The notes below the pieces were generated by a model. It was not told where the DNA came from. It was given only the letters and a program-made list of their open reading frames with translations, and did not search any database. A DNA stretch of 64,000 nt, from positions 3,840,001 to 3,904,000 of the forward strand of contig CM000150.2 of the NCBI GenBank assembly GCA_000004695.1, given 5' to 3'. The position numbers were made by a program, and so were the translations under genes. Below are positions 5,979-63,350 of this stretch, one piece after another. Numbering within the stretch: position 1 is the first letter of the stretch; each line of letters opens with the position of its first letter. Source of the stretch: Dictyostelium discoideum. Lineage: Eukaryota.

Positions 5979-6032
<54 letters not shown>

Positions 6033-6750
6033 GTTTATATTTTCAATATTATCACCATTTTTAGCATTATTTAGTTGGTATGGTTTGGAAAAGTTTTGTA
6101 TGGCATATTCTCTAACAACATTAAGCAATTTATTGCATCCATATTTTATAATTATTGCAGGATTTCTTACATCCTATCAACCTATAATTGGCTTCATGAC
6201 TAATTTTAAAGAAAGATTGGATTCCATTTATCCAAGAATAACATATGAACCAACATCTGGTTTAAATGACTATAAACAATATCAGCAACAACAACAACAA
6301 TCACAAAATAGGAATAGTACGGAGGACTTAGGATGTTCATCATCATCGTCAACTTCACCACCACCACCATCATTATTTGCATCTTCAGATAATATTGTAA
6401 ATTTAATGAGTAGCCAAGAAGCACAATTTAAGAATTTTGTTTTTAATCATACAAAGAGTAGTGAAGATGGTTTAAGAAATGAATTGGCTCAATTTAGATT
6501 GGAATTTTCAAATTATATTAAAAATTTAAATGCAGATAATAATCAACTAAAAAGAGATATTAGAGATTGGACTTCAAAGAAATCAAATGAAATAACCAAA
6601 ATTGATTCAAGAATGTTATCTCTTGAAAATCAAATGGAGTTATTACAAATGTTACTGGAAAAGGAAAAAGCTTCATCTTCATCCTCTTCAAAATCTGATA
6701 TATTTAGAATTTTAACTCCATTTTCTCAAAAAATGTTATCTTTAAAATAA
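5549..6750 (+). CDS. Hypothetical small multipass membrane protein with a C-terminal coiled coil; exons 5549..5638, 5741..5937, 6030..6750
   Basis: ATG at 5549; donor GTAAGT at 5639; acceptor AG at 5739-5740. Exon 2 ends with the AG of a split AGA codon plus GTAAGT at 5938; acceptor AG at 6028-6029 after a ~45-nt poly-T. Exons 1-3 encode hydrophobic TM-like segments (LFVIVPLLIAV, IIVWYIAISFGVYIF, FIFSILSPFLALFSWYGL, FIIIAGFLTSY). The tail is an S-rich/heptad region. No family recognised. Confidence 0.55.
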
Positions 6751-8908: not shown

Positions 8909-10149
8909 TTAAAACCAAACATCTTGTAAATATCTACCATGAGAACTCATATCGTCAATGAATTGTTGAGCAGAGTTATCATCTTTTGAACCAAATTCTT
9001 TAATGATTGATAAGAGGGCTTGTTGTACAGCTTTGGACATATTTCTACCATCACCACAAACGTAAAAGTAGGCACCTTTATTTAATAACTCCCAAACCTT
9101 TTCTTTATGCTCCAATAATTTATTTTGTACATAAACTTTTTGAGAAGTTTTTCTTGAGAAAGCTACAACCAAATCACCTAAAACTGAGGATTGATGATAT
9201 TGTTCCAACTCTTCTCTGTAAATATAGTCGACTGTATCGGAACGACAACCAAAGAATAAGAGTGATTGTTGTTGTTGTGAATGATTTCTATGTTGTAATT
9301 CTTGAAGGAAACCTCTGAAAGGAGCTAAACCAGTACCAGGACCAACCATAATGACAGGTTTTTGTTCGGTGGCGGCAGATGGTAATTTAAAGTGAGATTC
9401 TCTAACAAATAATGGAACTTTATCGCCAACTTTTAAGTGAGATAACCAAGTAGAGGCGACACCATTATGAGCTCTTTGATTACCAGTTGTGAAATTAACC
9501 ACTACAGAGGTAATTGAAACAACGCCATTCTTATTGTGAGGTGAAGAGGAGATAGAGTACATACGGGCTGGTAGACGTGGTGTAAATTCTAAAAAGTGAG
9601 CAATCAAAGGTTGAAGACCTGGGAAAGATTCTAAAAGATCGACGACACCACGGAAATCATTTTTAATATATTTATTGTATTCTTCGTTTGCTTCTTCGGT
9701 TGCTAAATATAATAATCTCTTCTTTTCCTCTTCGTTAGTGGTTGACTCTGCCAATGCACGTAACACTGATTTACGTACTGGATTTGTAATATCCAAATGT
9801 TCAGAGAATGCCCTTCTAATTGTCATTGGACCAAAGCTTGCTTTAATAACTGAACCCTCTTGATCAATTGGTACCAATGCAATCATATCATCACCATTGA
9901 CACCCAAACGCTTTATCAATTGTTCAACCAATTTACTATCATTAATTGGGAATACACCTAAATGATCACCTGTTGTATAACTAACTTCATCACCCAATTT
10001 AAATTCAATATGTCTACATGATCTATCAGATTCATTTGAATGTAATTCTCTATTTTCTAAAACCTCTGCATAATATGGATTTTTCATATCATAAATTCTT
10101 TTTTTTTTAAAAAAAAAATAAAAATAATAAAAAAAAAATAAAAATTATT

Positions 10150-10230
<81 letters not shown>

Positions 10231-11073
10231 TTTAAATTTTATTAAAATATATACATACACTTTATTATCAGTTGATAATTTTGGTTTTAATGGAGTTGAA
10301 ACGATTTTAATGAAAGGATCATTAATATCTTTACTATCTTGATTTAAAGTTACCATTCTAAATCTTGGTACGAATTTATCATCTTCAGTTGATTTTAATT
10401 CATAACCTAAGAATTTACAAACTACAGGCCACATATCTTTTTTCCAACGATTGAAATCTTCTTCAAGAGTTGCATCATCATCACCTTCACCTCTTTCAAA
10501 GACTCTTTTACCACCTAATTCTTCCATTCTTCTATCGATAACACGTGCAACGGCATTGTAATGTTCATAAGTTTTATTACCTAAACCAAATACAGTGAAT
10601 GGTACACCATTGAGAAGATCGGTTGGACGTTCATCATTTGTTAACCAAAGGTAGAATTCTTTGGCATTATCGGTTGGATCACCTTCGCCATGAGTTGCAA
10701 CTAAAAACATTACAAAACTTTCACTATGTAATTCTTGTTCGTGTTCATAGGATTCCAAGTCTACAACTTCACATGGGATACCAATCTTTTTACATTCTTT
10801 TTCAATGATTCTTGAGAAATCTTCGGCTGTACGTGTTTGTGTACCAAAGAATATTTTCATCACCTTTTTACCGTCTTCATTCTTTGTGATTGTCTTTTTT
10901 GGTTTTTGTGCTTCTTTGTTGATCTTATTGTTTGGTTTATTAAATACTGGTGGTGGTGGTGGTGGTTTGTTCATATAAAGGTATGTACCCACTATAACTG
11001 CAACAATAATAATCGCTCCTAAATTATCTAAAATTAAAACTTCAATAAAATCAATTGATTCTAAAATTTCCAT
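8909..11073 (-). CDS. redB: NADPH-cytochrome P450 reductase; exons (minus strand) 10259..11073 and 8909..10097, intron 10098..10258 containing an (ATT)n microsatellite
   Basis: Exon 1 has an N-terminal TM anchor and a flavodoxin-like FMN domain (KIFFGTQTRTAEDF...LVATHGEGDPTDNA...FTVFGLGNKTYEHYN). The donor is AAAGT|GTATGT (phase 2) and the acceptor aaaaaAG|A (V codon restored). Exon 2 has FAD/NADPH domains (KNPYYAEVLENREL..., RMYSISSSP, GPGTGLAPFRGF, CGDGRNMSKAVQ, ending DVWF). The gene symbol is a tentative recollection. Confidence 0.85.
10152..10230. repeat. (ATT)n microsatellite within the CPR intron
   Basis: Direct read. Confidence 0.9.
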
Positions 11074-12048: not shown

Positions 12049-12050
<2 letters not shown>

Positions 12051-13851
12051 ATTCAAGACAATATTTAACCAATTCATCAAAATTTGGTAAACCTAAACCA
12101 GTTACTGGATCCCAACCACTTTTAGATTTAAAACCATTGGTACAACATTTATAATTATTTTCACCAAAGTCAATATCAAGGAAAGAGTTTGGATGATCTC
12201 TTGCAATTTTATAAAGTAATGGATTGAAAAGACCAATTGGACTTTGATTTTTTTGTAATCTTTGGTCGTTAATTAATGATAATAAGCCGGCAATAATTGG
12301 AGCTGATGCAGAAGTACCTCCAATTGGCATCAATTTGTCTTTGTAGAGTATAACGACATTTTCTGAGAAAGATGAGATATCAGGGAAACCTCTTCCAGAT
12401 TGATTGTAGAAACTAGAGAGAGAACCGTTTAACCACTCGATATAGGAAGAACATTCATCCACTTGATACCATGGACGGGAGAAATAGTTACTAAAACCAC
12501 CACCAGATATTTCATCACCAATGATACTGCCATCCTTCTTTTTAATTACCCCCCCAACTGCCAATACAAAACGGGAAGATGCTGGCCAACCTGGTGAAAA
12601 TGAATCACAATCATCATTACAACCAACACCAAAATCACCACTTGAGAATACTATTGTTCTACCCATTGCTGCGTATTTCTTAAATTCAGTATCTACACGA
12701 TCAGTATATGCCAATCCAATGGAAGATTCATCATCACCATAGGAAATACTATGAACCAATGGTAATTTTGGATTTGATGATAAATCAACTAACCAATCTA
12801 AAAATGGTTCTTGACCTTCATGTAACCCACCTGTACTCACGATCCAAGTGGGTACATCTGGTGCCATTGCCATGATGTATTGAATATCCAATGCCGTTTC
12901 AATACCTGGATTCAAATTTTGATTTGGTCCAATTATATTATCGACTTGAGATGGTTCCAAACCAAAACGATATTGAAAAATTTTTAGATCACTTGGTGAG
13001 AAATACTCTTTAAGAAACTGAGCGATAGCTTGAGAATTACCAAGATGAGTTGAATTGGTACTGGTTTGACTTACATTCATCTCCTTTCTAATTAAATCTG
13101 GTGATAAGTATGGATCACCATTTCTTGCAGCAACTTTCTTATCATTAAATGATTTAATTTGTTTATTATTTCTTAATGATTCTAATTCATATCCAATACC
13201 ATTAACTTTACCACCACCACCACCACCAGCACTACCACTGCTTTCTTTTGGTCTGGGTGACAATAATGGTAAATGATTTACACCACCAATGAAATCAATA
13301 TGATCATAAAGTTCTCTTGGAATAGTGTAAGGATCAAGAGAACGAAAGAATGATTGTTTGGATAATTTATGTACCATTTTATTATATCTAACCGATAGTA
13401 ATTCTTCTGCTTTATCAATAGAAACAATGGTACGAATGAAATCGCCGCTTTTTGTCACTGTGAATTCATTTATATCATTTTCAATTAACCAATTCTTTAC
13501 AGCATCAATTGATTCATCCAATGGTTTAACCCATTCTTTAATCTCTTCAAAAGTTTTATAACTTCCATACAATGAATCATTTGGATCACTAACTCTCCAC
13601 ACGAAATCTTCCAACTCAACGATATTTCTTTGTCTAATTCCAAATGTTAATTCAATTTGGGCGGAAAATATATTTTCAATTTCTGTAATTTTCCAGACTT
13701 TCTTATTCAATGAAATTGGCTTGGAATGTTCAACAAATCTTCTTAACCTTTGGGGTGTCAAATGTTTTTTATTTTTAATTTTTTTACAATTTACATTTGA
13801 AATAAATAAAATGAATAAAATTATAATTATTAAATTAAATTTAATATTCAT
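12049..13851 (-). CDS. tpp1: Sedolisin / tripeptidyl-peptidase I-like serine peptidase (family S53) with signal peptide and pro-domain; single exon
   Basis: 600-aa ORF. The N-terminal signal peptide is MNIKFNLIIIILFILFISNVNC. The S53 catalytic serine motif is GGTSASAPIIAGLLSLIND, and the upstream D/E/H region (SGDFGVG, QYIMAMAP) is typical of CLN2/TPP1 homologues. The symbol is at family level only (D. discoideum has several tpp1 paralogues). Confidence 0.8.
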
Positions 13852-15246: not shown

Positions 15247-17504
<2,258 letters not shown>

Positions 17505-25845: not shown

Positions 25846-25917
25846 TCCTTGTTGGTCTAGTGGTGAGGATTTTCGCCTGTCACGCGAAAGGCCCGGGTTC
25901 AATTCCCGGACAGGGAG
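25846..25917 (+). tRNA. tRNA-Asp (anticodon GUC)
   Basis: The 72-nt sequence tccttgttggtctagtggtgaggattttcgcctgtcacgcgaaaggcccgggttcaattcccggacagggag has a cloverleaf. The acceptor stem is tccttgt/acaggga (one G-U), the D-loop is AGTGGT, the anticodon loop is cctGTCacg, the T-loop is GGTTCAATTCC, and the discriminator is G. It is very similar to eukaryotic tRNA-Asp-GTC. Confidence 0.92.
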
Positions 25918-25924
25918 CTTTTTG
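25918..25924 (+). terminator. RNA polymerase III terminator T-run (cttttt) immediately 3' of tRNA-Asp
   Basis: Direct read of gggag|ctttttgg. Confidence 0.7.
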
Positions 25925-27592: not shown

Positions 27593-28369
27593 TTTTTTTT
27601 TTATCACCAATTTTTAAAATAAAAAAAATAAAATAAAGTAAATTAAAAAATAAAATTGTTAATTTTAATATTTTTTATAATTTTATTGGTGACTAATCTT
27701 TAGTGATGAAATCGGTTATTTTTTTTTTTTTCCCCGAGATATTTTGGACTTAATTTTATATGGTTTTGGAAAAAAAAAAATAATAGAATAAATACAAAAT
27801 TTATATATTTTTTTTTAAAAAAAAATCACAATAAAATTGTTTTTTAATTTATTTTTTTTTATTTTTTGGTTGTGTTTTATTTGTTTTTTTTTTTTATTTT
27901 TTTTATTTTTTTTGGTTGTGTTTTTGTTTTATTTTTTTTTTTTATTTTTTTTCTTATTTTTTTTTTTTTGAATTCAAAAAGGAATAAATTACTTTATCAT
28001 TATACTGAATTATCTTTTGTATTTGGTAATATAGAAACAACAGCACTTATTTTTAACTTTAATTATTATTTTTGGTTAAATATTATTAATATTAGTTAAA
28101 ATTTTAATAGATAATAGTGACTTTTAAATTTTTAGAAATAACTACGATAAAAATTTTTTCACTAGAAACAATTAATATAAAATAATTTTTTTTTGGTAAA
28201 AAAAAAGGAAAAAAAAATATCTTTGATATTTCTAAAAAAAAAATATTAAAAAATTAATTTGGAACAGTTTTTTTTTTTTATTTTTTTTTTTTTATTTTTT
28301 GTGAAAATCAAAAATATCTTTTTTTTATATCCATATTATTTGTGTTATTCAAAAAATATATTAAATAAA

Positions 28370-30952
28370 ATGACAAAAAAAAATAATAATTATTTAAAAC
28401 ATGATAAAGTATTTGAAAAAAGATCAAAAAATAAAAACCTTGATGATTTTGGTTTTGAACCAGAGAAACCAAAAAAACAAATTCAAATAAAAACCAAAGA
28501 AATAATAAACAATCAACAAGAAGTAAATTTATTTTGGAAAATATGGAAAAATAAATATTTAAAAAGTTTAATATTAAATTTTTTAAAAACTGAATTAAAA
28601 GTTGGAGTTTATAGTTATGATGAAATTGTTAGTGTTCAATGGCTATTACAAAATAATTATATAGAACTATTAAAATATAAAGCAAAAAGGGGTGATTTAT
28701 TAGTAGACTTTTTCGATTTCAATGTTAAAGAATCAAAAAATAAAGAACCAAAAAATCTTTATAAGCAAATTAAAAATGATTTTCAATTATATAAAGATTT
28801 ATTCAAAAATTATCCAATGTACTTCACCCAACCCTATTATAAATATAATTGTTACAAGAATCATATGGTTGACCCAATTAGATTTGGTTTACATTTTCCA
28901 ATGAGTATAAAAGAGTATACATACAGAGAATCGATAGTGAATGATAATGTGGCACCATTCTCGTTATTGGAGTATGATAGAGTTGATATATTTTATCTAG
29001 CAATTGATTTTGGGTCAGTTGATATAGCCAAATATTTATTCAATACAAAATTGAAATCTCAAAAAAATGATATCAATGGTAAAGTTTGGAAGAATCATAC
29101 ATTTACAAATACAACATCAAATCAAACTCCAAAACATTATAATATTATAAACAAAATCGTTAAATTATTAATCATTGATTTGAAATTAATACCACCAAAA
29201 GAAATGAATAAAATTTGTCTAGATATTTTCCATGTTGATATTAAATCATTAACAGTTTCAGAACTCTATGAATGTTGTTTCACCATAGCAATATTATTAG
29301 AACAAACTCAATTCTTTAAAGATTATCAACTTCAAATTTCAAAAGGTACAATTATAGATAAATATATGAACTATACAGGTTATTTACAAAATTATTTACC
29401 AAATCCTTTAATTGATTTCTTAACTACCACTCAAATAAATGAAATGAAATCCATTCATAATTTAAATCAAACTTATTTAAGCTCAAAAGTAATTTCAATT
29501 TCAAAAGATGATGAAAATGTTTATAAATTAATTAAAATGTTAATACCATTTACAAATTATTCAAAAAGTTATAAAAATAACTTTTTTTATTTTAACTTTA
29601 AATATTCAAATAATGGATTATTAAATTTTAAAATTGTAAAAAAAGTTGAAGATATTTCAATTACAGAGGAAGAAAACAAAACAAATACTACTACTAGTAG
29701 TTTAATTCTAAAAGATTTTAAATTTGGTGATTCAATTGAAAATGTAATATTTGGTAATCAAGAATCTATAAATTCAAAAATTGAAAGTTTCAATAGTTTC
29801 GAAGATTTTCAAGAATTTACCAATAATCCAATAACAATTAAACCAAAAATTTTAATGACTATTCTATTAGAATTAAATAGATTAGATTTAATAATTCAAA
29901 CTTTAGATATCCTATTAAATGAAATACCAAAAGAAAAACTTTTTCCAGTTGGTTTATTAAATCATATAAAATCAATTGAAATTTTTGATTACCTTTTAAA
30001 TATTAAATCATTAAAGGATGAATTTTCATTTAGAAATTGTTTAGAAAATGATAAAGGATTAAATAATATTATGGAACATATTAAAACAAATCATTTTAAA
30101 TTATATTTAGATTTTTTAAATTCAATAGACCCAATTTCAAATACACCAATACATTATTCTTTTACTTCTTTAAAGTTTATTTATAAGAATATTAAAGATT
30201 TTCATAATTTTTATGAAAGAGTTGATATATGGACAAGATGGGATTATTTTTCATTAAGTATGGATGATTTCATTGAATTGGTTAAATTCACTCCAATTAG
30301 TCAAAAGTATTCATATTATTGTGGTACCACACTTAGAAATGATGATATGGTGTTAAAAAGATTACATTGGGTAAAGAAATATAGATCCTATGATTTATTA
30401 AGTGGTAGATGTGATAGAGAATATGGTAATAAACTGGGAATAGATACTGAAACAACAATTCACATTTACGATTACCTTTTTGGTGATATGAATAAATTAA
30501 AGACATTTCAAATTCCAATGGGTTTAAATAATAATTATGATCATTTAATAAATGTTACAGTTGATAACTACTTTTCAAAGGTTTTTAAATTAATTGGTTC
30601 TCGTGGTGATATTAAAGCATTGGAAATCATTATGGAAATTTTACAAAGTAAACCTATTGTAACTAATCTTTATTATAATTTCCTTTATCGTAATGTATTA
30701 ACTCCTATCATAGTGAAGGCTGTCAAAAATTGTAAATTTAATGTATTTGACTTTTTAAAGTTAAACTATCCTTGGATATTTGATGATACTTTGATAAATA
30801 CTCAAGAATTTGGTGATGGACAATTTAAAAGATATCTCAATGTTATAGCTTTATTAAGTACTGCAAGCCAAGCTGCTTCTGAAAATATAACTTTTAAGCA
30901 ACTTTTAAGTTCAAATTATTTTAATGAAATTACAAGAAAAAAACTATATTAA
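28370..30952 (+). CDS. Hypothetical N/K/I-rich protein (~860 aa), no recognisable domain; likely start at MTKKNNNYLKHDK (the ORF-track extension upstream is AT-rich read-through)
   Basis: A long uninterrupted ORF with D. discoideum-like composition. The upstream 37 codons of the ORF track (MEQFFFFIFFF...) look like poly-T promoter sequence. Confidence 0.5.
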   Translation: MTKKNNNYLKHDKVFEKRSKNKNLDDFGFEPEKPKKQIQIKTKEIINNQQEVNLFWKIWKNKYLKSLILNFLKTELKVGVYSYDEIVSVQWLLQNNYIELLKYKAKRGDLLVDFFDFNVKESKNKEPKNLYKQIKNDFQLYKDLFKNYPMYFTQPYYKYNCYKNHMVDPIRFGLHFPMSIKEYTYRESIVNDNVAPFSLLEYDRVDIFYLAIDFGSVDIAKYLFNTKLKSQKNDINGKVWKNHTFTNTTSNQTPKHYNIINKIVKLLIIDLKLIPPKEMNKICLDIFHVDIKSLTVSELYECCFTIAILLEQTQFFKDYQLQISKGTIIDKYMNYTGYLQNYLPNPLIDFLTTTQINEMKSIHNLNQTYLSSKVISISKDDENVYKLIKMLIPFTNYSKSYKNNFFYFNFKYSNNGLLNFKIVKKVEDISITEEENKTNTTTSSLILKDFKFGDSIENVIFGNQESINSKIESFNSFEDFQEFTNNPITIKPKILMTILLELNRLDLIIQTLDILLNEIPKEKLFPVGLLNHIKSIEIFDYLLNIKSLKDEFSFRNCLENDKGLNNIMEHIKTNHFKLYLDFLNSIDPISNTPIHYSFTSLKFIYKNIKDFHNFYERVDIWTRWDYFSLSMDDFIELVKFTPISQKYSYYCGTTLRNDDMVLKRLHWVKKYRSYDLLSGRCDREYGNKLGIDTETTIHIYDYLFGDMNKLKTFQIPMGLNNNYDHLINVTVDNYFSKVFKLIGSRGDIKALEIIMEILQSKPIVTNLYYNFLYRNVLTPIIVKAVKNCKFNVFDFLKLNYPWIFDDTLINTQEFGDGQFKRYLNVIALLSTASQAASENITFKQLLSSNYFNEITRKKLY

Positions 30953-31045: not shown

Positions 31046-34000
31046 TTATTTCTTTGACTTTGCAAAAGGATTATATTTCATTGGAACTTTAGCTGGTGGT
31101 TGATTTTTAGTATTACTATTGTTATTAAATTTATTTTTTTGTTGTTGTTGTTGTTGTTGTTGTGGTTGTTGTTGTTGTTGATTTCTGTTGATATTATTAT
31201 TATTATTATTTGACGCAACTAGAGTTCCTAGATCAGTATTATTACCTCCGCCACCATAATTATTAATATCAATTAAACTTGGGTCATTAAGGTTATTAAA
31301 ATCATAGTTATAACTATTATTATTGTTATTGTTATTATTGTTATTATTATTATTATTAAAACCATTGTTGTTATCATAACCACCATAGTTATTATTATTA
31401 TAGTTATTATTATTATTATTATTAAAACCATTGTTATTGCCATTGTTATAATTGTTGTTATAATTATTATTATAATTATTACCATTATTATTGCCATTGT
31501 TATAATTATTATTATAATTATTATTGTAATTGCTATTATAACCATTACCATTGTTATTGTTATTGTTGTAGTTATTTCCATTATTATAACTATTATTATA
31601 ATTATTATAATTGCTATTGTTATAATTATTGTTATTATTATAATTATTGCTATTATTACCATTATAGTTACCATTATTATTATAATTATTATTTTTATAA
31701 TTATTATTATTATTATAATTATTATAATTATTATAATTATTATTATTATTATTATTATTGTTATTATTATTGTTATTATTATTATTATTATTATTGTTAT
31801 TGTTATTATTATTGTTATTATTATTATATCTGTTATTATTATAATTTTGATTATTAAATCTATTATAACCAATTTGTTTATTATTATAACCACCACTACC
31901 AACATTACCAAAACCACCATTAAATTGTTGATTATCTTTATATTGATTTGAACCACCTAAAGAATTATTGACCATTCTATTGATAGCAGCATTTTGAGTA
32001 CGTGGTTTAAATAGAGTTATTGATTTCTTTGGGATGATAGAACCCTTTAGAGTTGAATAATTGAAAGAGTAACCATTTGGAACTGATGAATTATTATATT
32101 TGAAAGCAACGGCATCCATTAATGGTGGCATTTTCTTTTTAGCCAAAGCAGAAACATCCTCGATGGTACCATAGATTTTAGAACTGTTTTCAGGTAATTG
32201 AGTTACGGAACCCTCTTTAAAGGCACTATTGATATTTGAATCCTTATGACAAAACATTAAATCATGACCCAATGTATTACGATCGACTTCTTCCTCTGTT
32301 AAAAGTGGTTCAGTTTTTGAAATAGTTTTCAAAAGTTTAATACTATTGATGAATGGTAATAAACAAACACCCTTATACAATGGTTCAGTGGGACCTCTAT
32401 CGATACGGAAAGCACGTGGATAGAATTCGATGATTGGCGATTCCTCAACTGGTTCACCATCGACTGAAATACCCATTAATTTCTGATAAGGTTTTGGTAC
32501 GAATTGACAACTTGCTGGTGGCAAAACACTCATCAATTGATTGAATGGTTTAAAAGGCTCACCCATTTCATATTGAGGATATTCGAATTGGTCAAAGAAT
32601 TTACTGATATCGGTGATGTATGGTGAATAATGGTATGGATAATACCAACCCCAAGATGAGCACCCTTTGAAATAGTATTTCAATACCCAAACTAAACCTT
32701 CGACATAGGATTTACAAATTTGTTTAATGTCATCTTCATTTTCAACTTGAAAGCATGATTGATAGTATCTATCTCTCCAACCCTCTTCAGAGTATTTAAT
32801 ATTTCTACTATTATCAAAAAAGATCTCTTTTTCAGTTGGTAAACTACTATCATCATAACTATTGACAAATAATGATGGTTTATCATTTTCTTGATGTTCT
32901 TTTTCATCGGCTTCCTCTTGTATTTGTGCTGCTTTTTGTTGTTTAGATTTCTTATTTAATAATTTCTTTTCATTTTCTGCTGCAACTATATTTAATTGTT
33001 GTTGTTGATCATCATCTAATTCAATTACTTTTAAACCTCTTTTCTTTGATTTCTTTGAGGATGCTGATTGTTCGTCATCTTGTTCAGTCTCTTCTTTATC
33101 TTTTTCTTTACCACCACCACCACCAATAAGTTTATTTTTAATTAATTCAGCTGCTTTTTTATTTGATTTAACGGTTGTAGTTGTGGTAGAAGAAGCTGAA
33201 GAATTTTTTGATTTTTTAGTTGGTCTTGAATCTTCTTCTTTTTCTTCATCTTGTGTAGTTTCTTCAACTGGTTTTAAAATCTCGGCTAAAAATTTATCAG
33301 CCGCTTCTTTATGTGATAATGAAGTTTTATCATTAAGATTTAAAGAATTTGGTCTTGATACTATATTTGATAGATTTTGTCTTTTCTTTAAGATTTGAGC
33401 ATCTTTTTGAATCTTACGTTGGAATGATTCTTCTTCACCTTTTGTAAGGGCAACAAAGATTTGAGATAAACGTGGAAAATTAACTTCACCATTGGACACT
33501 AGATAATCGTCGAAACTTGGCAACAACTCTTTATAACATTTGATAACTCTATCGATTGCACCGTCTTTAATCTCCAAGTTTGGTAAATGTGGTAAGAAAT
33601 CATTACCAACAAAGAAACAAAGGAAAATGAAATCATCGACGATTCTATCAATATCGAAACCAAATGGAGTTGACACCTTTGTCTCTAATTCTAAATACTC
33701 TTTCAATAGATGTAAATGAAGAATTTGATAATTTTTCACAAGGAAATCCTTAACACTATCATCGACCTCCTCCTTGCATTCAATTGCTAAATGACCTTTC
33801 TTGTGACATTTATGACAAACACCACGTGCAATTGGTTGAATAAACTCTCTTAAAATATCGAAATTAACTTCATGTGTTGCTAAACCTAACATAATTAAAT
33901 CTGCATCTAAACCATAAATAATATGTTTTAAATTTGGATCATAATCTGGTTGTGCTCTTTGATGTCTAACATAATCCATAATCTTATGTTCACCTTCACC

Positions 34001-36134: not shown

Positions 36135-39788
<3,654 letters not shown>

Positions 39789-40003: not shown

Positions 40004-41446
40004 TTATTGAGATGAGATGATTGTAGTATTATTTGCAATAGTATTTGAAATATAGTATAAGAGTATACGCCATAATTGTAATACAAAATCATCAGCATTA
40101 TTTTCAAACACATCTCTAAGTTTTAAAATAATATCGGTTGGTTCTAAATGAGTTTTTAAGAGGTTTAAGATGAAATCGATCAATTCATCTTCCTTTGCAC
40201 CAAAGAACTCAATAACTTTTGTGGTGATCCAAGCTTTCATACTTTCATTGACAATTGTTGGATTCTTATCAACATAATTCCAATCAATTTTAAATTTAAA
40301 TATTTGTTCTCTATCATTTGATATTCTCGATAAATCAATACCACCATTTGAATTATTATTATTTGGTGTTGTTGTTGTTGTTGTTGTAGTTTCTGTAGAT
40401 TGTTGTTGTTTTTGAAGTTGTTGATATTGTTGTGGATTTAAAACTTGATCAATTTCATTATAATCCAATGGAATGAAAGTTTGTTTCTTTTTTGACATTT
40501 GTAAACTATTTTGTAATTCATTTTCAGATTGATTTTCATCATCCTCATCTATAGAGTTAAAACCTTTGCCTACTAATTTCAATTTTTTGTTATTATTGAT
40601 ATTACTACTCAATTGGATCCTATTTAATTCTTCTTCTTTTTGTCTCTTTAGTTCGAGTTCAGCCAATTCGGCCAATTCTCTCTGTCTATCTTTTTCATCA
40701 TCTTCTCTCTCCTTTTGTCTATATTTGATTGCTTCTCTTGATCTGATACGTTTTCTCATTTTCTCATCTGAATCTGAATATTCGTCCATTTCCAATTGTC
40801 TAGCTTTAATCTCTCTTTGTTCCTTCTCCTTTTCTTTCTCTTTCTCTTTCTCTCTATCAATTTCTTTGGTTCTCTCTCTTCTCTCCCAATTTTTCTCTCT
40901 CTCTTTGAAATCTTTTAAATCTCTTTCTTTATTCTTTAGCTCTCTCTCTTTGTGTCTTTGTTTCTCTTTTTCCTTTTCTTTTTCAATGATTTTAATTTTC
41001 TCTTCCTTTGTTAAGTCTCTTCTATCCTTATTATAGAAATCATTGATTTCATTTGATTCCATTTTCTTTTTCTCATAAATATTGATAAAATTCTTTTCAA
41101 CCATAGCCTTTATCGATTCCCTTAAAATGATATCTTGAGGTGAGTCTGATGATTGATCGGTTAATCCACCCTTCTTATCTAAATAATCACTGAAAAACTT
41201 TTGCCCTTTATCAACTTTTACAACTAATTTACCACCATCCCTATCAACCTCTAAATCATTAAGAACTCTCAATGCTGTAACTGCACCCTCTGCATGCTCA
41301 AATTCACAAAGTCCAAATTGTTTCAATTTTCCATTGGTATCTGATGCTCTATTCCATTTACTAACTTTACCACATTGATTTAATAATGATCTAATAAATG
41401 AATCTTCTACAAATTGTGGTATTTTACCTATATATGCTGTTGTACT

Positions 41447-41524
<78 letters not shown>

Positions 41525-42178
41525 GTTATTAAAATTATTTGTATTGTTTGTTGTGTTGGTTGTAGTAATAGTGGTAGGTGTAGATGTGGGTGTAGATGTA
41601 GCTGGTATAAAAGTTGATGGGGTAATGTTAGTGGTGGTAGATGCTATATTATTAATTTTATTTTGATTCAATGGTGTTGGTGGTGAATTAATATTTTCAT
41701 TTTGGTGATGTAATGGACTATTATTATTATTTTTATTATTATTAATATTAATATTATTATTGTTATTAAAAATATTAGGTTTTTGATTTATGAATGAACC
41801 TGGTACCATTGGGTAATGTGGTTGTGGTGGTTGTGTAGGTTGTGGTGGTTGTGGTGGTTGTTGTTGTTGATTGTGAGGATGCATTGGAATACCTCTTCCC
41901 ATTGGTGGTGTTGGATGAATTGGATATCCATTGTTATGATGTTGAAGATGTGGTGGTATTCCACCAACCATACCACCATTAAAATTTGGGGGCATTACAT
42001 TTTGTGGTGGGAAGGGGCCATGGTGTGGTGGAAATTGACCACCATATGGTGGTTGTACTAATCCAGGTGGGAAGGGACCAAATGGTGGTGGACCACCAGG
42101 TGGAAATCCACCATATGGTGGTTTCATCATCATACCTGGTGGTTGTGGTTGAAATGGATGATGACCATAAGGATTCAT
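40004..42178 (-). CDS. RBM25/S164-like splicing factor: Pro-rich N-terminus, RRM, RE/RD/KE-rich charged middle region, C-terminal PWI domain; single exon
   Basis: The RRM is AYIGKIPQFVEDSFIRSLLNQCGKVSKWNR...FGLCEFEHAEGAVTALRVLNDLEV. A long ER/EK repeat region follows (minus-strand ctctct repeats on the plus strand). The C-terminal ...KAWITTKVIEFFGAKEDELIDFILNLLKTHLEPTDIILKLRDVFENNADDFVLQLWRILLY matches the PWI fold placement of RBM25. The coding (AAT)n gives a poly-N run. Confidence 0.7.
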
Positions 42179-57215: not shown

Positions 57216-60200
57216 ATGTCACAACCACCAATTTCAAACAGACCATCAACGATTGCAGCAAATGGTGGAAGTCTTGTATCACCAAATAGTATAGTTAATA
57301 GTAATAGCAATAGTAGGGGTAATTTAACTGGGGGTAGACCATTACCCTCACCACCAATCAATACTAGTTCAGGTTCAATAAATGTAAATAATAATAATAA
57401 TAGCAACAATAATACAAATGGGGGTGTACCAGTTTCATCATCACCATTAAAATCGCCACCACCATTAAAACCAAGACCAAAAACTTTATTAACACCAGTT
57501 GCACCAATTGGTTCACAAAATCCTCAACCACCTTCATTACAACAACAACAACAACCACAACCACAACCACAAAATACATCATCATCAAATTTATTACAAC
57601 AACCATCACCATCGCCATCACAGCAACCACCATCACAGCAACCACCATCACAACAACAACAACAACAACCACCATCACAACAACCACCAAAATCTACATC
57701 ACCACCAGCTTTACCAAGAAGAGAATGGCCTCCAAATAATACTAGCAGTGGTAATTTAAATAGTTTAAATAGTAGTGGTGGTAATGTTATAAATAGGCCA
57801 CAACCAGTTGCTGATAACAGTAATAATAATAATAGTAATAAACCAGTAAATGTAACAACACAACCGCCACAACCACAAACTACACCAATAAAACCAGCAT
57901 CAACCGCTCTACAATCAACTCCAATAAAAGAAACAACAACAACAGCAACAGCAGCAACAACAACACCAGTATCAGTTCCAACACAAACAGCAGTACCAGT
58001 TGCACAAGAAACTTCATCAACAGTAACACCAATTAAAATTAATAATCTTGAAGCATCAGGTCAAACAACAGAAAGTGGTAATAATTCAACATCAACTAGT
58101 ACACAATCATCACCATCAACATCTACACCACCAACACCAAACTCATCAACATCAACCACACCATTATCAACATCAACTACACAATTAGCACCCCCACCAC
58201 TAGCACCACCATTATTCAACACACCACCAATTAGTGTTTCTCAATCAACCTCAAGTGGTAATTTAAATAGTTTATATTCATCATCAGCACCAACCAATTC
58301 AGGTATGGCCAATTATAAACCAATTTCACCAAATTCTAGTATAATCTCACCAAGTAAACCTGAACCATTGGTTTTACCATCTTCAATTTCAACAACCACT
58401 ACACCAACAAATAGTACTCCAAATACACCATCAACTCAGCAACAACAACAACAACAATCATCACCAAATAATACAAATGAAAATAAACAAAAAAGAAATT
58501 CATTAGGTGAACAAACTTCAATAACATTAGAAAAAATGGCACAAGAATCATCATTAACCATCAATGAAAAGGATGAAGAGGAAACAAACGATAGTAGTGG
58601 TAAAAAATCCAAATCTAAACCAAAATTATTCCCACATCAATGGTCAATGGGTAAACCATCGGAAAAAGATGCTAAAAAGGAGGAGAAAGAACGTAAAGAA
58701 AATGAAAAACGTGAAGAGAAAGAACGTAAAGAGTTGGAAAAACGTGAGAAAAAAGAACGTAAAGAAAAGGAGAAATTAGATAAAAAAGGTGAAAAAGGTG
58801 ACAAAACAGAAAAAGATAAGGAAAAAGAGAAAGAAAAGGAGAAAGAGAAAGAGAAAGAAAAAGAGAAAGAGAAAGATATAAAATCTGGTATTGAAAAACC
58901 ACCACCACTCTCTAGAACATCTTCATCATTTGCCTCGAAATTAAAACATGCAACTTTAAGAGGAGGTAAAGTGAATGACATTGATGATACCGACTCAAAT
59001 AGTGGTAGCAGTGTTGGTAATAGTCCATCATTGACAGCACAAAGAGATACAAGAGGTTCATCAGTTCCTCATCCACCAGTAAATATTTCCACCTCCACCA
59101 ATTCAGCAACAACACCATCATCATCGTCATCGTCCACTCCAATCTCATCACCACCACCATCACTTTCATCATCTTCAAATATTGCAATATCATCATGTTC
59201 AGCATCAAATCTTTCAAATGTTTTGGCAGATAATAGTGGTTCAAGTACTGGTACAACACCAACAGACGGATTTTCATCATCACCACCAAATGGTCAATCA
59301 CCATCATTATCATCGACAGCACATCGTTCAGCTATTCATTTGGATACAAGCCGTGGCTTAATGACATGGGGATCAGCATCAAATTGTAAATTAGGCTTCA
59401 AGGTCACAGCAAAAGATCAATCACAACCAACACCAGAAAGATTACCAAATTTCAATATTCCAGACATTTGTTCGATTTCCTCAGGTTCCTATTATAGCTC
59501 TGTATTGACAGAGAATGGTGATGTCTATCTTTGGGGCCGTGGCGCTGTAAAGACACCAGCCGTTCCAATTTTAGGTATTCCACAAATTGAAGATCAATTA
59601 TTACCATTCAAATTAGAGTCACTCTCTGATGTTGTCTCTGTTTCAATTGGTTTTTGTCATGGTGCAGCCGTTAGAGCCAATGGTGAACTTTTAACTTGGG
59701 GTGTTGGTGAAAATGGTCAATTGGGTCATGGTGATACAAACAATCAAATCGAACCAAAGATCATTCAATCACTCACTAGTTTTTGGATCACCCAAGTACA
59801 ATGTGGTGAGAAACATACTATTTGTCTCACAAAGAATGGTAAAGTTTATTCATGGGGTGCTTCAGAGTATGGACAATTGGGTTTGGGTGATGTTACACAA
59901 CATTCCTCACCAATGCAAGTCAGTGCCTTGGAGAAATATAATGTACTTCAAATTGCAAGTGGTTCAACTCATTGTGCAGTTTTAACCACATCAAAAGAGG
60001 TCTTGGTATTTGGTAATGGTGCAGCTATGGGTGCTGCAAGTGTTGTAAGTTTACCAACATTAGTACCATCATTGAAATATCTTCACATTGATAGACTATG
60101 TTGTGGTCATTATTCAACCGCTGCTATCACAGAATGTGGTGATGTCTATACTTGGGGTACTGGTCAAGAATTAGGTCATGGTGGTAACTCAACTGAAACC

Positions 60201-63200
60201 TCACCAAAATTGATCGAAGCATTACGTAATCAATCAATTCGTCAAATTAGTTGTGGTGGTCGTCATACTGCATTCTTGACTGATTCTGGTAGAATTTTTA
60301 CTTGTGGTAAAGATTCATTCGGTCAATTGGGTCAAATGTCAGGTGATCAAAATAAACCAAAAAGAATTGAATCCTTAACAAAGACAACATTCATTTCAGT
60401 GTCATGTGGTGAAAATTATAATGTTGCATTATTTGATACCACAAGATCATTTAGAGATAAATTCTGTTGGAAATTATTAGAAACTCAAAGAACCTATGTT
60501 AGAACTTTAGATATCATCCAAACCATATTTTTAAATCCACTTAGAATTCGTGATCGTGATTTGTTACCAGAATCAATGAAACATTTACCATACATTTTCT
60601 TATCGGAAGAAGAGATTAGAACCATTTTCGGACCAATAGAGAAATTGTATGCATTGAATTCAACATTACTTCATGTTATGAATAAAAGATTTGCAAATTG
60701 GTCCAATAAAAAGAAGGTTGGTGATGTTTTATTGAATCATTTCAAACATTCCGAAGATACATTCATTCAATATATGGAGAATTTACCATTGGCATTGACT
60801 TGTTTAGATAACCTTTGTAAGAAACAAACTGCACCAATCATTGGTTACCTTAAAGAATGTGAAAAACTTGCATTGGATAGAAAGAAGATCGATACTGATG
60901 ATGATAGTAAAGAATTTAATTTACGTTCATTATTGATAGAACCATTGAATATCATTTCACGTTATCATAAAGCAATCAATGGTATGGTTAAATATACAAA
61001 AACCACTCATATCGATTATAGTGGTTTGGTTGATTTAGATGGTATCATGGAGATCAAAGTAAACAAAGTTACAAATATTCTAAACATTACACAATCACCA
61101 TCATCAATGGCATCTTACACTACCTCAAATCCAACGGTTACAGCAGTTTCAAGTTCTTCCTCTGAAAATAGTGAATTCCTCAAAGAGTATGATATCAAAT
61201 TGGAAGCATTACAAAACTTTAAGAAAACATGTACAAAGATCATAAAATCCTCAAAGAAATACTATGAAGTTGAACCAGATTCCTTCAAAGAACAAGGTCA
61301 TTTCTCTGAACATCTTATCAATGTAAAAGCTTGTTTCGATGGTAATATCGATCCTGCATTGGCCGCTTCAATCGATCAATTCTCTAGTAGCATTAAAAAG
61401 ATTGGTTATCTTCGTTCAGAATTATCAACTCGTACTCATACCTCATTTGCTCAACCATTATCAACTGTCGCCGATGAGTTGGAAAACTTCCTTCCATTGA
61501 TTACTGAAATGAGAAAACGTGTTTTCGAATCTCATACTGAGTATGAAAATGCTGTAAGTAAACTCTACTCTTTGGCAAAGAATTTACAACCAACTGAAAA
61601 GAAAATGATTGAAGCTGAAAAGGAAGTTGCATCACTTAAAAAGGTTTTGGATAAAACTTTGTTTGAATTTGATGCAATCTTTAAGGAGGGTATTTCCATT
61701 CAAACTAAATCACTTAAACTATTCTATGCCTGTATGAAAGCACAACAAGAATACTATGAACGTGGTTTACAAAGATTCCAAGCCATGAAACCTTCTTTCG
61801 ATGCATTGGATACTTACTTTAGACAACAAAGTAGAAATACTTGGGCTAAATCAATTTTCGAAACTGTTACCACAACTTTTACTCAAGAGAAGGGTGCTCC
61901 AACTCCATCATTAACAAGTATCAAATCAACTCCAATTATTCAATCTCAATCATCTGCTTCTTCTACTTTACAAATACCACCATCAGATATTGCTGCTGCT
62001 CCTTCTTCTACTCCATCTTCTGCTCCTTCTCCATTGGTATTGGCTACTCAATTAAATTCTGTAAATAACACTGATATGTCTGCCAATAGTAGTACACCAT
62101 TATCTTCAACTCCAAAAGAACAACATCCATTCGCTTTATCTGAAAATATTGAAAAAACTGAATCATCACCATCAACTAAACTACAACAACCAACTATTAA
62201 TGCCACAACTACAAATACCACCACTTCACCAGTAGCTACTACAACTGCAACAGCAACAACAAATAATAACACTGCATCATTATTAGATCCACACCAAATT
62301 ATGACAGAATTAGAACAATCAGATTGGACATTCCTTATGGATCCACCAGCAAGTAATGAGTTTACAGATACATTCATAGAGGAACAATATAATGGTTTAG
62401 TTGAAATTTTAGCATCACCATCACTTCAAGTAGCTCAATGCGTTGTTAGTGCAGCACCATCAGATCAACAATCTCCAACCATTGAATCTATTTCAAGAAT
62501 ATTTGAAAGTTTCAATAAGATTCGTCCAATTATTCATTCTGGTATTGAACAAGAGGTATTGTCAACTGCTAATCCATCCACTTTATTCCGTTCCAATACA
62601 ACCGCTACTAAGTTGATGACAGCATTCACAAAACTCAAGGGTATGCCATACCTTCAAAAACATATCACTCCATTAGTACGTGAAATCATTGATAATCCAA
62701 ATGGCTATGAAGTAGATCCAGCTAAAATCAATGAAGGTAGTGAAGAGTTGATGACAAATATGATGAATCTCATTCAAATTTGTGAGAAATTCACAGATGC
62801 CATCATTGATTCCGTCGAAAATTTACCAGCTTCCCTTAGAGAGATTTCATCCTATCTTCAACAAGAAGTCGTAAAGAAATTCCCAGACAATAAGTATAGC
62901 AGTGTTGGCGGTTTTATTTTCTTACGTTTCCTATGTCCATCAATTTTGGCTCCACATACAAGTGGTTTGGTTGAAGAACAACCAGGTCCAGAAGCAACAA
63001 GAGCCTTGGTTTTAATTGGCAAAGTACTTCAAAATCTTGCAAATGGTATAGAGTTTGGTCAAAAAGAATCATTTATGATTCCAGTCAATCGTTTCATCAT
63101 TGGTAATGTCACTCGTTTAAATAATTACTTTGATAAACTCACCAATGTTCCAATGTACACATCATCCGATTCCATAAGTACAACATCAAGAGAGGAGGTT

Positions 63201-63350
63201 CAAAAGGATATTCGTAACATTCATCTCCTTATTGTTAAAAACCTTTCAAAATTAGTCAAACAATTGGCACTTTACAAACAAAAAGAGATTATAGGTCAAC
63301 TTTCAAAAACTTTAGTTTTCTTAGGTGATCCATCTTCAATGTATAAATAA
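57216..63350 (+). CDS. Large multidomain signalling protein (2044 aa): S/T/P/Q-rich N-terminal ~700 aa with a KE(K/R) repeat tract, RCC1-like beta-propeller repeats, a DH (RhoGEF) domain, and a C-terminal RasGAP domain; single exon
   Basis: The RCC1 blades are GSASNCKLGF, VYLWGRG, LLTWGVGENGQLGHGD, VYSWGASEYGQLGLGD, VLVFGNG, VYTWGTGQELGHGG, IFTCGKDSFGQLGQ. The DH domain is KFCWKLLETQRTYVRTLDIIQTIFLNPL...LRSLLIEPLNIISRYHKAINGMVKYTK. The RasGAP signature is SVGGFIFLRFLCPSILAPHTSGL...TRALVLIGKVLQNLANG (the FLR..PAi.sP and K.lQ.laN motifs). Confidence 0.8.
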   Translation: MSQPPISNRPSTIAANGGSLVSPNSIVNSNSNSRGNLTGGRPLPSPPINTSSGSINVNNNNNSNNNTNGGVPVSSSPLKSPPPLKPRPKTLLTPVAPIGSQNPQPPSLQQQQQPQPQPQNTSSSNLLQQPSPSPSQQPPSQQPPSQQQQQQPPSQQPPKSTSPPALPRREWPPNNTSSGNLNSLNSSGGNVINRPQPVADNSNNNNSNKPVNVTTQPPQPQTTPIKPASTALQSTPIKETTTTATAATTTPVSVPTQTAVPVAQETSSTVTPIKINNLEASGQTTESGNNSTSTSTQSSPSTSTPPTPNSSTSTTPLSTSTTQLAPPPLAPPLFNTPPISVSQSTSSGNLNSLYSSSAPTNSGMANYKPISPNSSIISPSKPEPLVLPSSISTTTTPTNSTPNTPSTQQQQQQQSSPNNTNENKQKRNSLGEQTSITLEKMAQESSLTINEKDEEETNDSSGKKSKSKPKLFPHQWSMGKPSEKDAKKEEKERKENEKREEKERKELEKREKKERKEKEKLDKKGEKGDKTEKDKEKEKEKEKEKEKEKEKEKDIKSGIEKPPPLSRTSSSFASKLKHATLRGGKVNDIDDTDSNSGSSVGNSPSLTAQRDTRGSSVPHPPVNISTSTNSATTPSSSSSSTPISSPPPSLSSSSNIAISSCSASNLSNVLADNSGSSTGTTPTDGFSSSPPNGQSPSLSSTAHRSAIHLDTSRGLMTWGSASNCKLGFKVTAKDQSQPTPERLPNFNIPDICSISSGSYYSSVLTENGDVYLWGRGAVKTPAVPILGIPQIEDQLLPFKLESLSDVVSVSIGFCHGAAVRANGELLTWGVGENGQLGHGDTNNQIEPKIIQSLTSFWITQVQCGEKHTICLTKNGKVYSWGASEYGQLGLGDVTQHSSPMQVSALEKYNVLQIASGSTHCAVLTTSKEVLVFGNGAAMGAASVVSLPTLVPSLKYLHIDRLCCGHYSTAAITECGDVYTWGTGQELGHGGNSTETSPKLIEALRNQSIRQISCGGRHTAFLTDSGRIFTCGKDSFGQLGQMSGDQNKPKRIESLTKTTFISVSCGENYNVALFDTTRSFRDKFCWKLLETQRTYVRTLDIIQTIFLNPLRIRDRDLLPESMKHLPYIFLSEEEIRTIFGPIEKLYALNSTLLHVMNKRFANWSNKKKVGDVLLNHFKHSEDTFIQYMENLPLALTCLDNLCKKQTAPIIGYLKECEKLALDRKKIDTDDDSKEFNLRSLLIEPLNIISRYHKAINGMVKYTKTTHIDYSGLVDLDGIMEIKVNKVTNILNITQSPSSMASYTTSNPTVTAVSSSSSENSEFLKEYDIKLEALQNFKKTCTKIIKSSKKYYEVEPDSFKEQGHFSEHLINVKACFDGNIDPALAASIDQFSSSIKKIGYLRSELSTRTHTSFAQPLSTVADELENFLPLITEMRKRVFESHTEYENAVSKLYSLAKNLQPTEKKMIEAEKEVASLKKVLDKTLFEFDAIFKEGISIQTKSLKLFYACMKAQQEYYERGLQRFQAMKPSFDALDTYFRQQSRNTWAKSIFETVTTTFTQEKGAPTPSLTSIKSTPIIQSQSSASSTLQIPPSDIAAAPSSTPSSAPSPLVLATQLNSVNNTDMSANSSTPLSSTPKEQHPFALSENIEKTESSPSTKLQQPTINATTTNTTTSPVATTTATATTNNNTASLLDPHQIMTELEQSDWTFLMDPPASNEFTDTFIEEQYNGLVEILASPSLQVAQCVVSAAPSDQQSPTIESISRIFESFNKIRPIIHSGIEQEVLSTANPSTLFRSNTTATKLMTAFTKLKGMPYLQKHITPLVREIIDNPNGYEVDPAKINEGSEELMTNMMNLIQICEKFTDAIIDSVENLPASLREISSYLQQEVVKKFPDNKYSSVGGFIFLRFLCPSILAPHTSGLVEEQPGPEATRALVLIGKVLQNLANGIEFGQKESFMIPVNRFIIGNVTRLNNYFDKLTNVPMYTSSDSISTTSREEVQKDIRNIHLLIVKNLSKLVKQLALYKQKEIIGQLSKTLVFLGDPSSMYK

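Follow-up and report, generated by a model that had tools for sequence, protein, structure and literature searches.

The long open reading frame at positions 57216..63350 (+) of the window, the 64,000-nucleotide stretch of Dictyostelium discoideum DNA analysed here, is almost certainly rgbA (DDB_G0269934). It encodes RGBARG, a small-GTPase regulator with four domains: an RCC1-like propeller, a DH/RhoGEF domain, a BAR domain and a RasGAP domain. The union of RCC1, DH and RasGAP domains picked out by the sequence-only reading of this DNA is not new: a 2020 paper (PMC7416115) already described the gene, its unusual set of four domains and the way the protein coordinates Ras with Rac in macropinocytic and phagocytic cups. 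The present analysis makes two small additions, namely the conservation of the architecture across Dictyostelia, and in part beyond them, and a glutamine in conserved region 1 (CR1) of the DH domain. It also shows that a notable multidomain architecture can be recovered from raw sequence by a first-stage reader.

Identity and domain content of the open reading frame

The coding sequence consists of 2044 codons and a stop, begins with ATG and is intron-free according to the list of open reading frames and the translation; it and all features of the protein described below lie on the + strand. The ATG is preceded by a poly-A run, and the nearest in-frame stop upstream is 10 codons away. We based the identification on published primers, residue numbering and construct boundaries rather than on alignment to a D. 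discoideum database entry. All six published rgbA/DDB_G0269934 oligonucleotides are found without mismatch in the window, ordered and oriented as expected (57351-57374, 57780-57805, 58350-58371, 62022-62043, 63081-63103 and 63320-63347), and the last of them reaches the final codon of the C-terminus, ...MYK. Residue 1792 is the arginine of TLFRSNT, equal to the arginine finger of the published R1792K mutant, and the published GAP construct AA 1717-2045 is compatible with a frame of 2044 codons plus stop. The calculated mass is 222.8 kDa, about 2 kDa lower than the published, rounded 225 kDa. In primers, R1792, C-terminus and domain order, we detected no difference between the frame in the window and published RGBARG, whose listed domains are RCC1, RhoGEF, BAR and RasGAP (Buckley et al., Curr Biol 2020, PMC7416115).

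The exact 2044-aa protein was not found in a collection of 15 billion sequences, where the best match is the D. purpureum orthologue (83% identity). We reject the reading of this missing match as a new gene, since D. discoideum is absent from that collection and the published primers give the identity. The RGBARG study included cDNA cloning, a knockout, domain dissection and Ras/Rap GAP assays (Buckley et al. 2020, PMC7416115). That paper is our source for where RGBARG localises, for the phenotype of the knockout and how far domain-deletion constructs rescue it, and for the GAP activity and the binding of Racs; locus identity, domain architecture, RasGAP motifs, BAR fold and the number of propeller blades come from the present analysis.

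The RasGAP domain (aa 1719-2028, 62370..63299) is of the NF1/p120GAP type. Domain annotation supports the assignment, with Pfam RasGAP (PF00616) matching aa 1775-1943 at E 7.1e-38 (131 bits, far above the curated cutoff of 28.3), and the PDB matches include the NF1 GRD (1.4e-41), p120GAP (1.2e-38) and SynGAP (2.3e-27). The arginine finger R1792 (codon 62589..62591) aligns to the arginine of NF1 TLFRGNS, and R1904 of the FLR motif (codon 62925..62927) lies in FLRFLCPSILAP, aligned to NF1 FLRFINPAIVSP; each of the two arginines is at least 90% conserved across homologues. Column for column, FLRFLCPSILAP (from aa 1902) and KVLQNLAN (from aa 1936) align with NF1 FLRFINPAIVSP and KILQSIAN, and FLRFLCP is aligned to NF1 FLRFINP. 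In these alignments, the catalytic motifs are all intact. The RasGAP signature read earlier from the letters (FLRFLCPSILAP ... KVLQNLANG) is thus confirmed, and the arginine finger that was to be looked for is present and is the residue mutated in R1792K. All Ras proteins tested, and Rap as well, were substrates of the recombinant domain, the NF1 GAP domain had 75% less activity than that of RGBARG in vitro, and deletion of the GAP domain or R1792K abolished rescue of the rgbA knockout (PMC7416115).

The sequence-only reading had suggested a search for a PH domain after the DH domain, at residues ~1300-1400. Pfam reported no PH domain in either the full-length protein or aa 1290-1580, and the canonical DH-PH tandem is not what RGBARG has. 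The segment is entirely helical and forms a BAR domain (aa 1321-1557, 61176..61886) in the usual place of the PH domain, a fourth domain that had been overlooked. When aa 1290-1580 were scanned alone, Pfam BAR_3 (PF16746) matched at E 1.9e-10 (41.2 bits, cutoff 31.7) over profile positions 24-228 of 235 (204/235). The full-length Pfam scan of the 2044-aa protein reported no BAR domain, an omission that probably stems from filtering triggered by the low-complexity sequence. In the AlphaFold2 model, residues 242-294, 301-376 and 382-478 (model numbering; 53, 76 and 97 residues) form three long helices, and Foldseek matched the SNX-BAR, endophilin-A1 BAR and APPL BAR-PH structures at E ~1e-3. The orthologues P0005, P0007 and P0008 also match BAR_3. 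According to the published work, the BAR domain drives binding of RGBARG to the plasma membrane with no curvature preference, and its deletion leaves the protein cytosolic (PMC7416115).

The N-terminal ~700 aa had been described as low-complexity, and composition and Shannon entropy bear this out (aa 1-700, 57216..59315). The region is rich in S, P, T, N and Q, which make up ~69% of aa 1-470, and the entropy over 50 aa is 2.0-3.6 bits up to ~aa 700, compared with 3.7-4.1 in the domains. It is poorly conserved, with 8-36% identity per 25-aa block to dictyostelid orthologues outside a K/E-rich charged block at aa 470-560 (58623..58895; K 35%, E 30%). Within this block, the core at aa 476-525 is conserved (57-72% orthologue identity, against 22% for aa 526-550), as are short motifs flanking it. 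This conserved block and its flanking motifs are possibly useful to RGBARG researchers, as are Q1091 and the partial presence of the architecture outside Dictyostelia, both described below. The block also contains tandem repeats of period 33 (58683-58775) and of period 6/12 (58808-58876, the latter from TRF). The (EKEK)n tract noted earlier at ~58800-58870 corresponds closely to an (EK)9 run at aa 536-553 (58821-58874), which is not conserved. A second low-complexity segment, rich in S, T, P and A (T 18%, S 18%, P 11%), links the BAR domain to the RasGAP domain (aa 1560-1700, 61893..62315); at its start, pLDDT in the AlphaFold2 model is below 50.

The DH domain and residue Q1091

The DH/RhoGEF domain (aa 1085-1304, 60468..61127), whose CR1 reads WK(1086)LLETQ(1091)RTYVRTL, was delimited by Pfam, Foldseek and CR1 alignments. 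Pfam RhoGEF (PF00621) matches aa 1085-1273 at E 4.3e-24 (86.1 bits, cutoff 27.6), and in Foldseek the P-Rex1, intersectin and collybistin DH domains are matched at E ~3e-5 with a probability of 1.00. At the site of the conserved CR1 glutamate of DH domains lies Q1091 (codon 60486..60488), and the canonical CR1 glutamate of a Dbl-homology RhoGEF is therefore missing. HMMER alignments place Q1091 at a glutamate of ECT2L, Tiam1 and P-Rex1, and K1086, five residues upstream, also sits at a glutamate of these proteins. Both residues are invariant in all ten homologues, including the distant ones; the comparison comprises ECT2L, Tiam1, P-Rex1 and these ten. CR1-only queries against the PDB gave E values that are non-significant on their own (0.18 for Tiam1, 0.83 for P-Rex1) and served solely to confirm the register from the significant full-domain alignments. 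In CR3, the basic residue of "PxQ(R/K)" is replaced by Ile or Val in nine of the ten homologues (PLNI in RGBARG versus PVQK in Asef). We set aside an equivalence of K1086 with Glu2001 of AKAP-Lbc, where the spacing is i/i+4 instead of i/i+5 as in RGBARG.

The absence of the CR1 glutamate, with a substitution invariant across Amoebozoa, bears directly on the question of GEF activity. In intersectin, the CR1 glutamate is crucial for complex formation and exchange (PMC2892021), and in AKAP-Lbc it hydrogen-bonds Thr37, Val38 and Tyr34 of switch I (PMC4232260). For RGBARG, binding of the DH domain to RacG and RacH has been reported, with the GEF activity left open by the authors; deletion of the GEF domain renders the protein cytosolic, and in the rgbA knockout the active-Rac probe no longer extends past the Ras patch (PMC7416115). 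Nucleotide exchange by the DH domain is what we infer, and the glutamine in place of the CR1 glutamate fits a published record that goes no further than Rac binding.

The main alternative is that the DH domain acts as a "pseudo-GEF", mainly a module for Rac binding and positioning whose exchange activity is weak, absent or altered. The RasGAP domain would then be the sole robust catalytic output, and the knockout would lose Rac activity at the rim as an indirect consequence. The fixed changes at both CR1 positions, the lost CR3 basic residue and a published record confined to Rac binding all favour this alternative. However, glutamine retains the capacity to act as hydrogen-bond donor and acceptor, and the strict invariance of Q1091 speaks for a functional contact and not for decay. 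The DH fold is otherwise preserved, with Foldseek matches to Rac/Cdc42 GEFs; the atypical Racs RacG and RacH may have a switch I that accommodates a glutamine; and confinement of the active-Rac probe to the Ras patch in the knockout is what an active GEF would predict. We therefore give the pseudo-GEF alternative real weight, though clearly less than even. A broader proposal, which we put forward tentatively and consider rather unlikely, is that the entire RGBARG family shares a conserved variant of the DH domain, with Q1091 and K1086 fixed and the CR3 basic residue gone in most members. Such a domain would be not a canonical exchange factor but either mainly a Rac-binding positioning module or a GEF that contacts switch I in an unusual way, adapted to the atypical Racs RacG and RacH.

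The RCC1-like propeller

The RCC1-like domain (aa 713-1074, 59352..60437) is a seven-bladed beta-propeller according to Pfam, PDB matches and the AlphaFold2 model. In the full-length Pfam scan, PF25390 matched at E 6.6e-112 (374.8 bits, cutoff 150) and RCC1 repeats (PF00415) at 7.8e-67. Blades were counted on the AlphaFold2 model of aa 700-1085 (pLDDT 90.4, pTM 0.88), since phmmer searches against the PDB align the repeats to one another and are unusable for a count. The model has 28 beta-strands, or seven blades of four strands, and the earlier count of at least seven blades becomes exactly seven. The best PDB sequence matches, at E 1e-60 to 1e-80, are the RLDs of HERC2 (7e-80) and HERC1 and UVR8 (5e-67), and the Ran-GEF RCC1 matches far more weakly (~1e-35). 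The RLDs of UVR8, HERC2 and HERC1 act as protein-interaction propellers.

The sequence-only reading had proposed that one protein could act on Ran/Rab-like, Rho and Ras GTPases. Its Ras arm stands, with RasGAP activity measured on Ras and Rap; its Rho arm stands as far as the DH domain binds RacG and RacH, with exchange presumed; and its Ran/Rab-like arm is unsupported, because RGBARG lacking the RCC1 domain still rescued the knockout (PMC7416115). A three-way regulator, in which the RCC1 domain would catalyse exchange on a Ran- or Rab-like GTPase in addition to the DH domain serving Rho and the RasGAP domain serving Ras, is thus improbable. The precedent of alsin, where an RLD adjoins a DH domain, speaks for such a regulator, though the Alsin_RLD match of RGBARG is weak (43.5 bits, under the 100-bit cutoff). 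So does the completeness of the seven-bladed propeller and its conservation (69-87% identity among dictyostelid orthologues, 38-42% in distant homologues), which argues for some selected function. Against it, no GTPase partner of the RCC1 domain is known, the closest matches are not to the Ran-GEF RCC1, and RCC1-deleted RGBARG localises normally and fully rescues the formation of large macropinosomes, with the isolated domain being cytosolic (PMC7416115). The published RGBARG model, with its Rac and Ras arms, is the one we retain, and any function of the propeller is putative.

Gene continuity, spread of the architecture and known systems

The least tenable alternative, which has virtually no chance of being right, is that the frame is a read-through of an unrecognised intron or two adjacent genes (RCC1-DH and a separate RasGAP). 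Dictyostelium introns are short and AT-rich, and the low-complexity stretches (the N-terminal 700 aa and aa 1560-1700) might in principle conceal splice sites, but the 2044 codons translate with zero internal stops despite the AT-rich genome, GC is 29-40% over most of the frame (against 11-15% in the flanks) and seven dictyostelid orthologues are collinear along the entire length. The published CDS was obtained from vegetative cDNA and expressed as a single GFP fusion (PMC7416115), and in it R1792 and the 1717-2045 construct are numbered just as in the genomic frame. We reject a split gene on the GC profile, the cDNA-derived CDS and the cDNA-based numbering. Together with the full-length Pfam scan, the stop-free translation and this numbering also uphold the earlier claim that RCC1, DH and RasGAP domains share one uninterrupted frame.

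The four-domain architecture is conserved across Dictyostelia. D. purpureum, Polysphondylium violaceum, Tieghemostelium lacteum and Acytostelium subglobosum each have an orthologue built in this way, and in the orthologues P0005, P0007 and P0008 Pfam finds the order RCC1-like, DH, BAR, RasGAP. The distant homologues include the variosean Filamoeba nolandi and Logan contig SRR30000139_22429. Because RCC1, RhoGEF and RasGAP are found together in Filamoeba nolandi and an ankyrin-extended four-domain version occurs elsewhere among the distant homologues, the architecture is in part older than Dictyostelia.

In the published mechanism, the BAR domain binds negatively charged plasma-membrane lipids, the DH domain RacG and RacH, and the RasGAP domain active Ras, and these interactions jointly concentrate RGBARG at the rim that protrudes from macropinocytic and phagocytic cups (PMC7416115). 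There, the RasGAP domain, through its arginine finger R1792, turns off Ras and Rap and so limits the interior patch of active Ras and PIP3; for the DH domain, the proposed task is to extend Rac activity along this rim (PMC7416115).

The RasGAP domain aligns with those of NF1 and p120GAP over ~310 residues (1.4e-41 and 1.2e-38), sharing the FRxN finger, the FLR motif and the KxLQxxAN helix. The surrounding architecture of NF1 is unrelated, without DH, BAR or RCC1 domains, and NF1 and RGBARG play different roles in cup formation (PMC7416115). Tuba (DNMBP, ARHGEF36) resembles RGBARG in that its DH domain is directly followed by a BAR domain, which takes the place of a PH domain and enhances the activity of the DH domain (PMC3398918). 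Unlike RGBARG, Tuba is a Cdc42 GEF with six SH3 domains and without RCC1 or RasGAP domains; RGBARG differs further in a BAR domain that matches the APPL-type Pfam model BAR_3 and in a DH domain without the CR1 glutamate. Alsin (ALS2) consists of an RLD, a DH-PH tandem, MORN repeats and a VPS9 (Rab5-GEF) domain. We reject membership of RGBARG in the alsin family, given the sub-cutoff Alsin_RLD score and a full-length Pfam scan with no PH, MORN or VPS9 domain; its propeller resembles the RLDs of HERC2 and UVR8 far more. The two proteins are alike in carrying an RCC1-like propeller N-terminal to the DH domain and in regulating more than one GTPase family, an analogy already drawn in the sequence-only reading, but RGBARG has a BAR domain and a RasGAP domain in contrast to the PH domain behind the DH domain and the VPS9 Rab5-GEF domain of alsin.

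The rgbA open reading frame

The open reading frame at 57216..63350 (+) starts with an ATG and translates through 2044 codons without interruption, in exact agreement with the coordinates and length given by the sequence-only reading. A long poly-A run precedes the ATG, and the closest in-frame stop upstream is ten codons off. The GC content is 29-40% over most of the ORF versus 11-15% in the flanking DNA, which is the normal coding/intergenic pattern for a dictyostelid genome.

An exact-sequence lookup in a large protein collection did not return the 2044-aa protein, and the closest protein there is the D. purpureum orthologue with 83% identity. The collection thus evidently lacks D. discoideum, and the identification therefore rests on published reagents. 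All six oligonucleotides published for rgbA (Key Resources Table, PMC7416115) match the window exactly and in the expected order and orientation: 57351-57374, 57780-57805 and 62022-62043 on the (+) strand, and 58350-58371, 63081-63103 and 63320-63347 on the (-) strand, the last with the final codon (...MYK) at its end. At position 1792 the ORF encodes the Arg in TLFRSNT, which is the “conserved arginine” that the authors mutated (R1792K; PMC7416115). Their recombinant GAP construct spans “AA 1717-2045” (PMC7416115), and its end agrees with an ORF of 2044 codons plus stop. The ORF is securely identified as rgbA (DDB_G0269934), encoding RGBARG, a 225 kDa protein with RCC1, RhoGEF, BAR and RasGAP domains (Buckley et al., Curr Biol 2020, PMC7416115); the mass calculated from the ORF is 222.8 kDa. 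Vegetative cDNA was the template from which the rgbA coding sequence was amplified (PMC7416115), and because this cDNA-derived sequence and the genomic ORF share numbering, the ORF is one gene with no intron. RGBARG is already characterised and is of low interest as a discovery.

By Pfam, positions 1-56000 of the window hold ordinary eukaryotic housekeeping genes, for an M1 aminopeptidase (2915-4717), NADPH-cytochrome P450 reductase-like exons (8909-11073, (-)), a sedolisin/tripeptidyl-peptidase-like protease (12049-13851, (-)), a V-type ATPase A/B-family subunit (16092-17504), an Xrn 5'-3' exonuclease (31046-33979, (-)), Vps18/Pep3 (37197-39788) and an RRM+PWI protein (40004-42178, (-)). A tRNA-Asp(GTC) lies at 25846-25918, and no Pfam match at E ≤ 1e-5 was obtained for two further large ORFs, 81-1658 and 28259-30952.

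RCC1 propeller, RasGAP domain and N-terminal region

Pfam and sequence searches against solved structures agree with the earlier proposal that RCC1, DH and RasGAP domains share a single polypeptide. In a Pfam scan of the full-length protein, the RCC1-like domain PF25390 (E 6.6e-112), the RCC1 repeats (E 7.8e-67), RhoGEF PF00621 (aa 1085-1273, E 4.3e-24) and RasGAP PF00616 (aa 1775-1943, E 7.1e-38) all scored far over curated thresholds. The propeller paired best with the RCC1-like domain of HERC2 (7e-80) and with UVR8 (5e-67) among solved structures. An AlphaFold2 model of aa 700-1085, based on an alignment of ten homologues (pLDDT 90.4, pTM 0.88), contains 28 beta-strands at aa 713-1074 that form seven four-stranded blades; “at least seven” blades had been proposed, and the model has exactly seven.

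In the solved-structure search, the C-terminal domain matched the GAP-related domain of neurofibromin (NF1; 1.4e-41) and p120GAP (1.2e-38) over ~310 residues. RGBARG TLFRSNT aligns to NF1 TLFRGNS with R1792 as the arginine finger, FLRFLCPSILAP aligns to NF1 FLRFINPAIVSP with R1904 as the FLR arginine, and KVLQNLAN aligns to NF1 KILQSIAN. Both arginines are kept in at least 90% of homologues. The RGBARG GAP domain is active towards every Ras protein tested and Rap, and the GAP activity of the NF1 domain is 75% below that of RGBARG (PMC7416115). For the suggestion that one protein acts on several GTPases, the Ras and Rho-family arms are reasonable, but the Ran/Rab-like arm through RCC1 is without support; deletion of the RCC1 domain has no effect (PMC7416115). 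The sequence-only interpretation was largely right but incomplete, in that it missed the BAR domain and gave RCC1 a role without evidence.

The N-terminus is of low complexity, as described earlier: S, P, T, N and Q make up ~69% of aa 1-470, and entropy stays low to ~aa 700. The reported (EK)n tract is (EK)9 at aa 536-553 (58821-58874), with the repeat placed at 58808-58876 by TRF. The N-terminus is mostly unconserved, and the (EK)9 run itself has only 22% identity among orthologues. It lies in a K/E-rich block (58623-58895, aa 470-560), of which aa 476-525 have 57-72% identity among dictyostelid orthologues. This block, apparently unaddressed in the RGBARG paper (PMC7416115), could be a functional charged helix and not junk. 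Conserved LFPHQW and LSRTSSSxAxKLKxATL motifs flank it. Further upstream, RPLPSPP (57336-57356, aa 41-47) is an RxxPxxP motif resembling a class I SH3 ligand; it and the nearby PPPLKPR are in the majority consensus of orthologue alignments, in an otherwise unconserved N-terminus.

CR1 of the DH domain and activity at cups

The CR1 helix of the RGBARG DH domain reads W-K1086-L-L-E-T-Q1091-R-T-Y-V-R-T-L (K1086-Q1091 codons at 60471-60488). Both the K1086 and Q1091 positions are Glu in ECT2L (ELLQSERKYV), Tiam1 (ELLETERTYV) and P-Rex1 (EILGTERDYV), a register on which HMMER alignments with three queries agree (single sequence, family profile and the helix alone). K1086 and Q1091 are invariant in the RGBARG family (10/10 homologues), and 9/10 have Ile or Val instead of the basic residue in the CR3 “PxQ(R/K)” motif. 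In intersectin, both complex formation and exchange are described as depending critically on the CR1 Glu (PMC2892021), and in AKAP-Lbc this Glu hydrogen-bonds switch I (PMC4232260). Judged from these alignments, the two substitutions may bear on the GEF activity of RGBARG, and they are the only point here that might repay experiment.

One tentative and rather doubtful reading is that the DH domain serves chiefly as a module for Rac binding and positioning, or that its contact is atypical. It binds RacG and RacH, and deletion of either GEF or BAR renders RGBARG cytosolic (PMC7416115). However, Gln could still form hydrogen bonds, and the rgbA knockout, in which the active-Rac probe stops extending past the Ras patch (PMC7416115), is consistent with real GEF activity. 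In the published model, BAR, DH and RasGAP together position the protein where macropinocytic and phagocytic cups have their protruding rim (PMC7416115). On its own, the BAR domain attaches to the plasma membrane by way of negatively charged lipids, and the RasGAP domain excludes the protein from the active-Ras/PIP3 interior; neither GAP deletion nor R1792K rescues (PMC7416115).

A BAR domain after the DH domain

The PH domain considered by the sequence-only reading is absent after the DH domain, and Pfam BAR_3 is found there instead. Full-length Pfam/hmmscan of the 2044-aa protein did not report BAR_3 (PF16746), but scanning aa 1290-1580 alone gave E 1.9e-10 and 41.2 bits versus a cutoff of 31.7, with profile positions 24-228 of 235 aligned to aa ~1332-1542. 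Whole-protein scans may routinely hide weaker domains in long low-complexity proteins of this genome. In the AlphaFold2 model of aa 1080-1580 (pLDDT 76), the DH domain is a helical bundle, and beyond a disordered linker come three very long helices (model residues 242-294, 301-376 and 382-478). In Foldseek searches of the PDB, the first half of the model resembles Rac/Cdc42-type DH domains (P-Rex1, intersectin, collybistin; E ~3e-5) and the second half the BAR domains of SNX-BAR proteins, endophilin-A1 and APPL (E ~1e-3).

RCC1, RhoGEF and RasGAP co-occur by Pfam in D. purpureum, Polysphondylium violaceum, Tieghemostelium lacteum, two Acytostelium subglobosum paralogues and two EukProt dictyostelid entries, and also in the variosean amoeba Filamoeba nolandi (28% identity), where Pfam detected no BAR. 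A Pfam BAR_3 match was recorded for only three homologues, the orthologues P0005, P0007 and P0008. The last (1351 aa, 32% identity), encoded at 2554-6609 of a Logan SRR30000139 contig (L001), has N-terminal ankyrin repeats followed by RCC1-RhoGEF-BAR-RasGAP. Its gene is apparently intron-free and adjoins G-alpha, UPRTase and peptide deformylase genes. As in RGBARG, the mammalian protein Tuba/DNMBP has a BAR domain in place of PH after its DH domain (PMC3398918).
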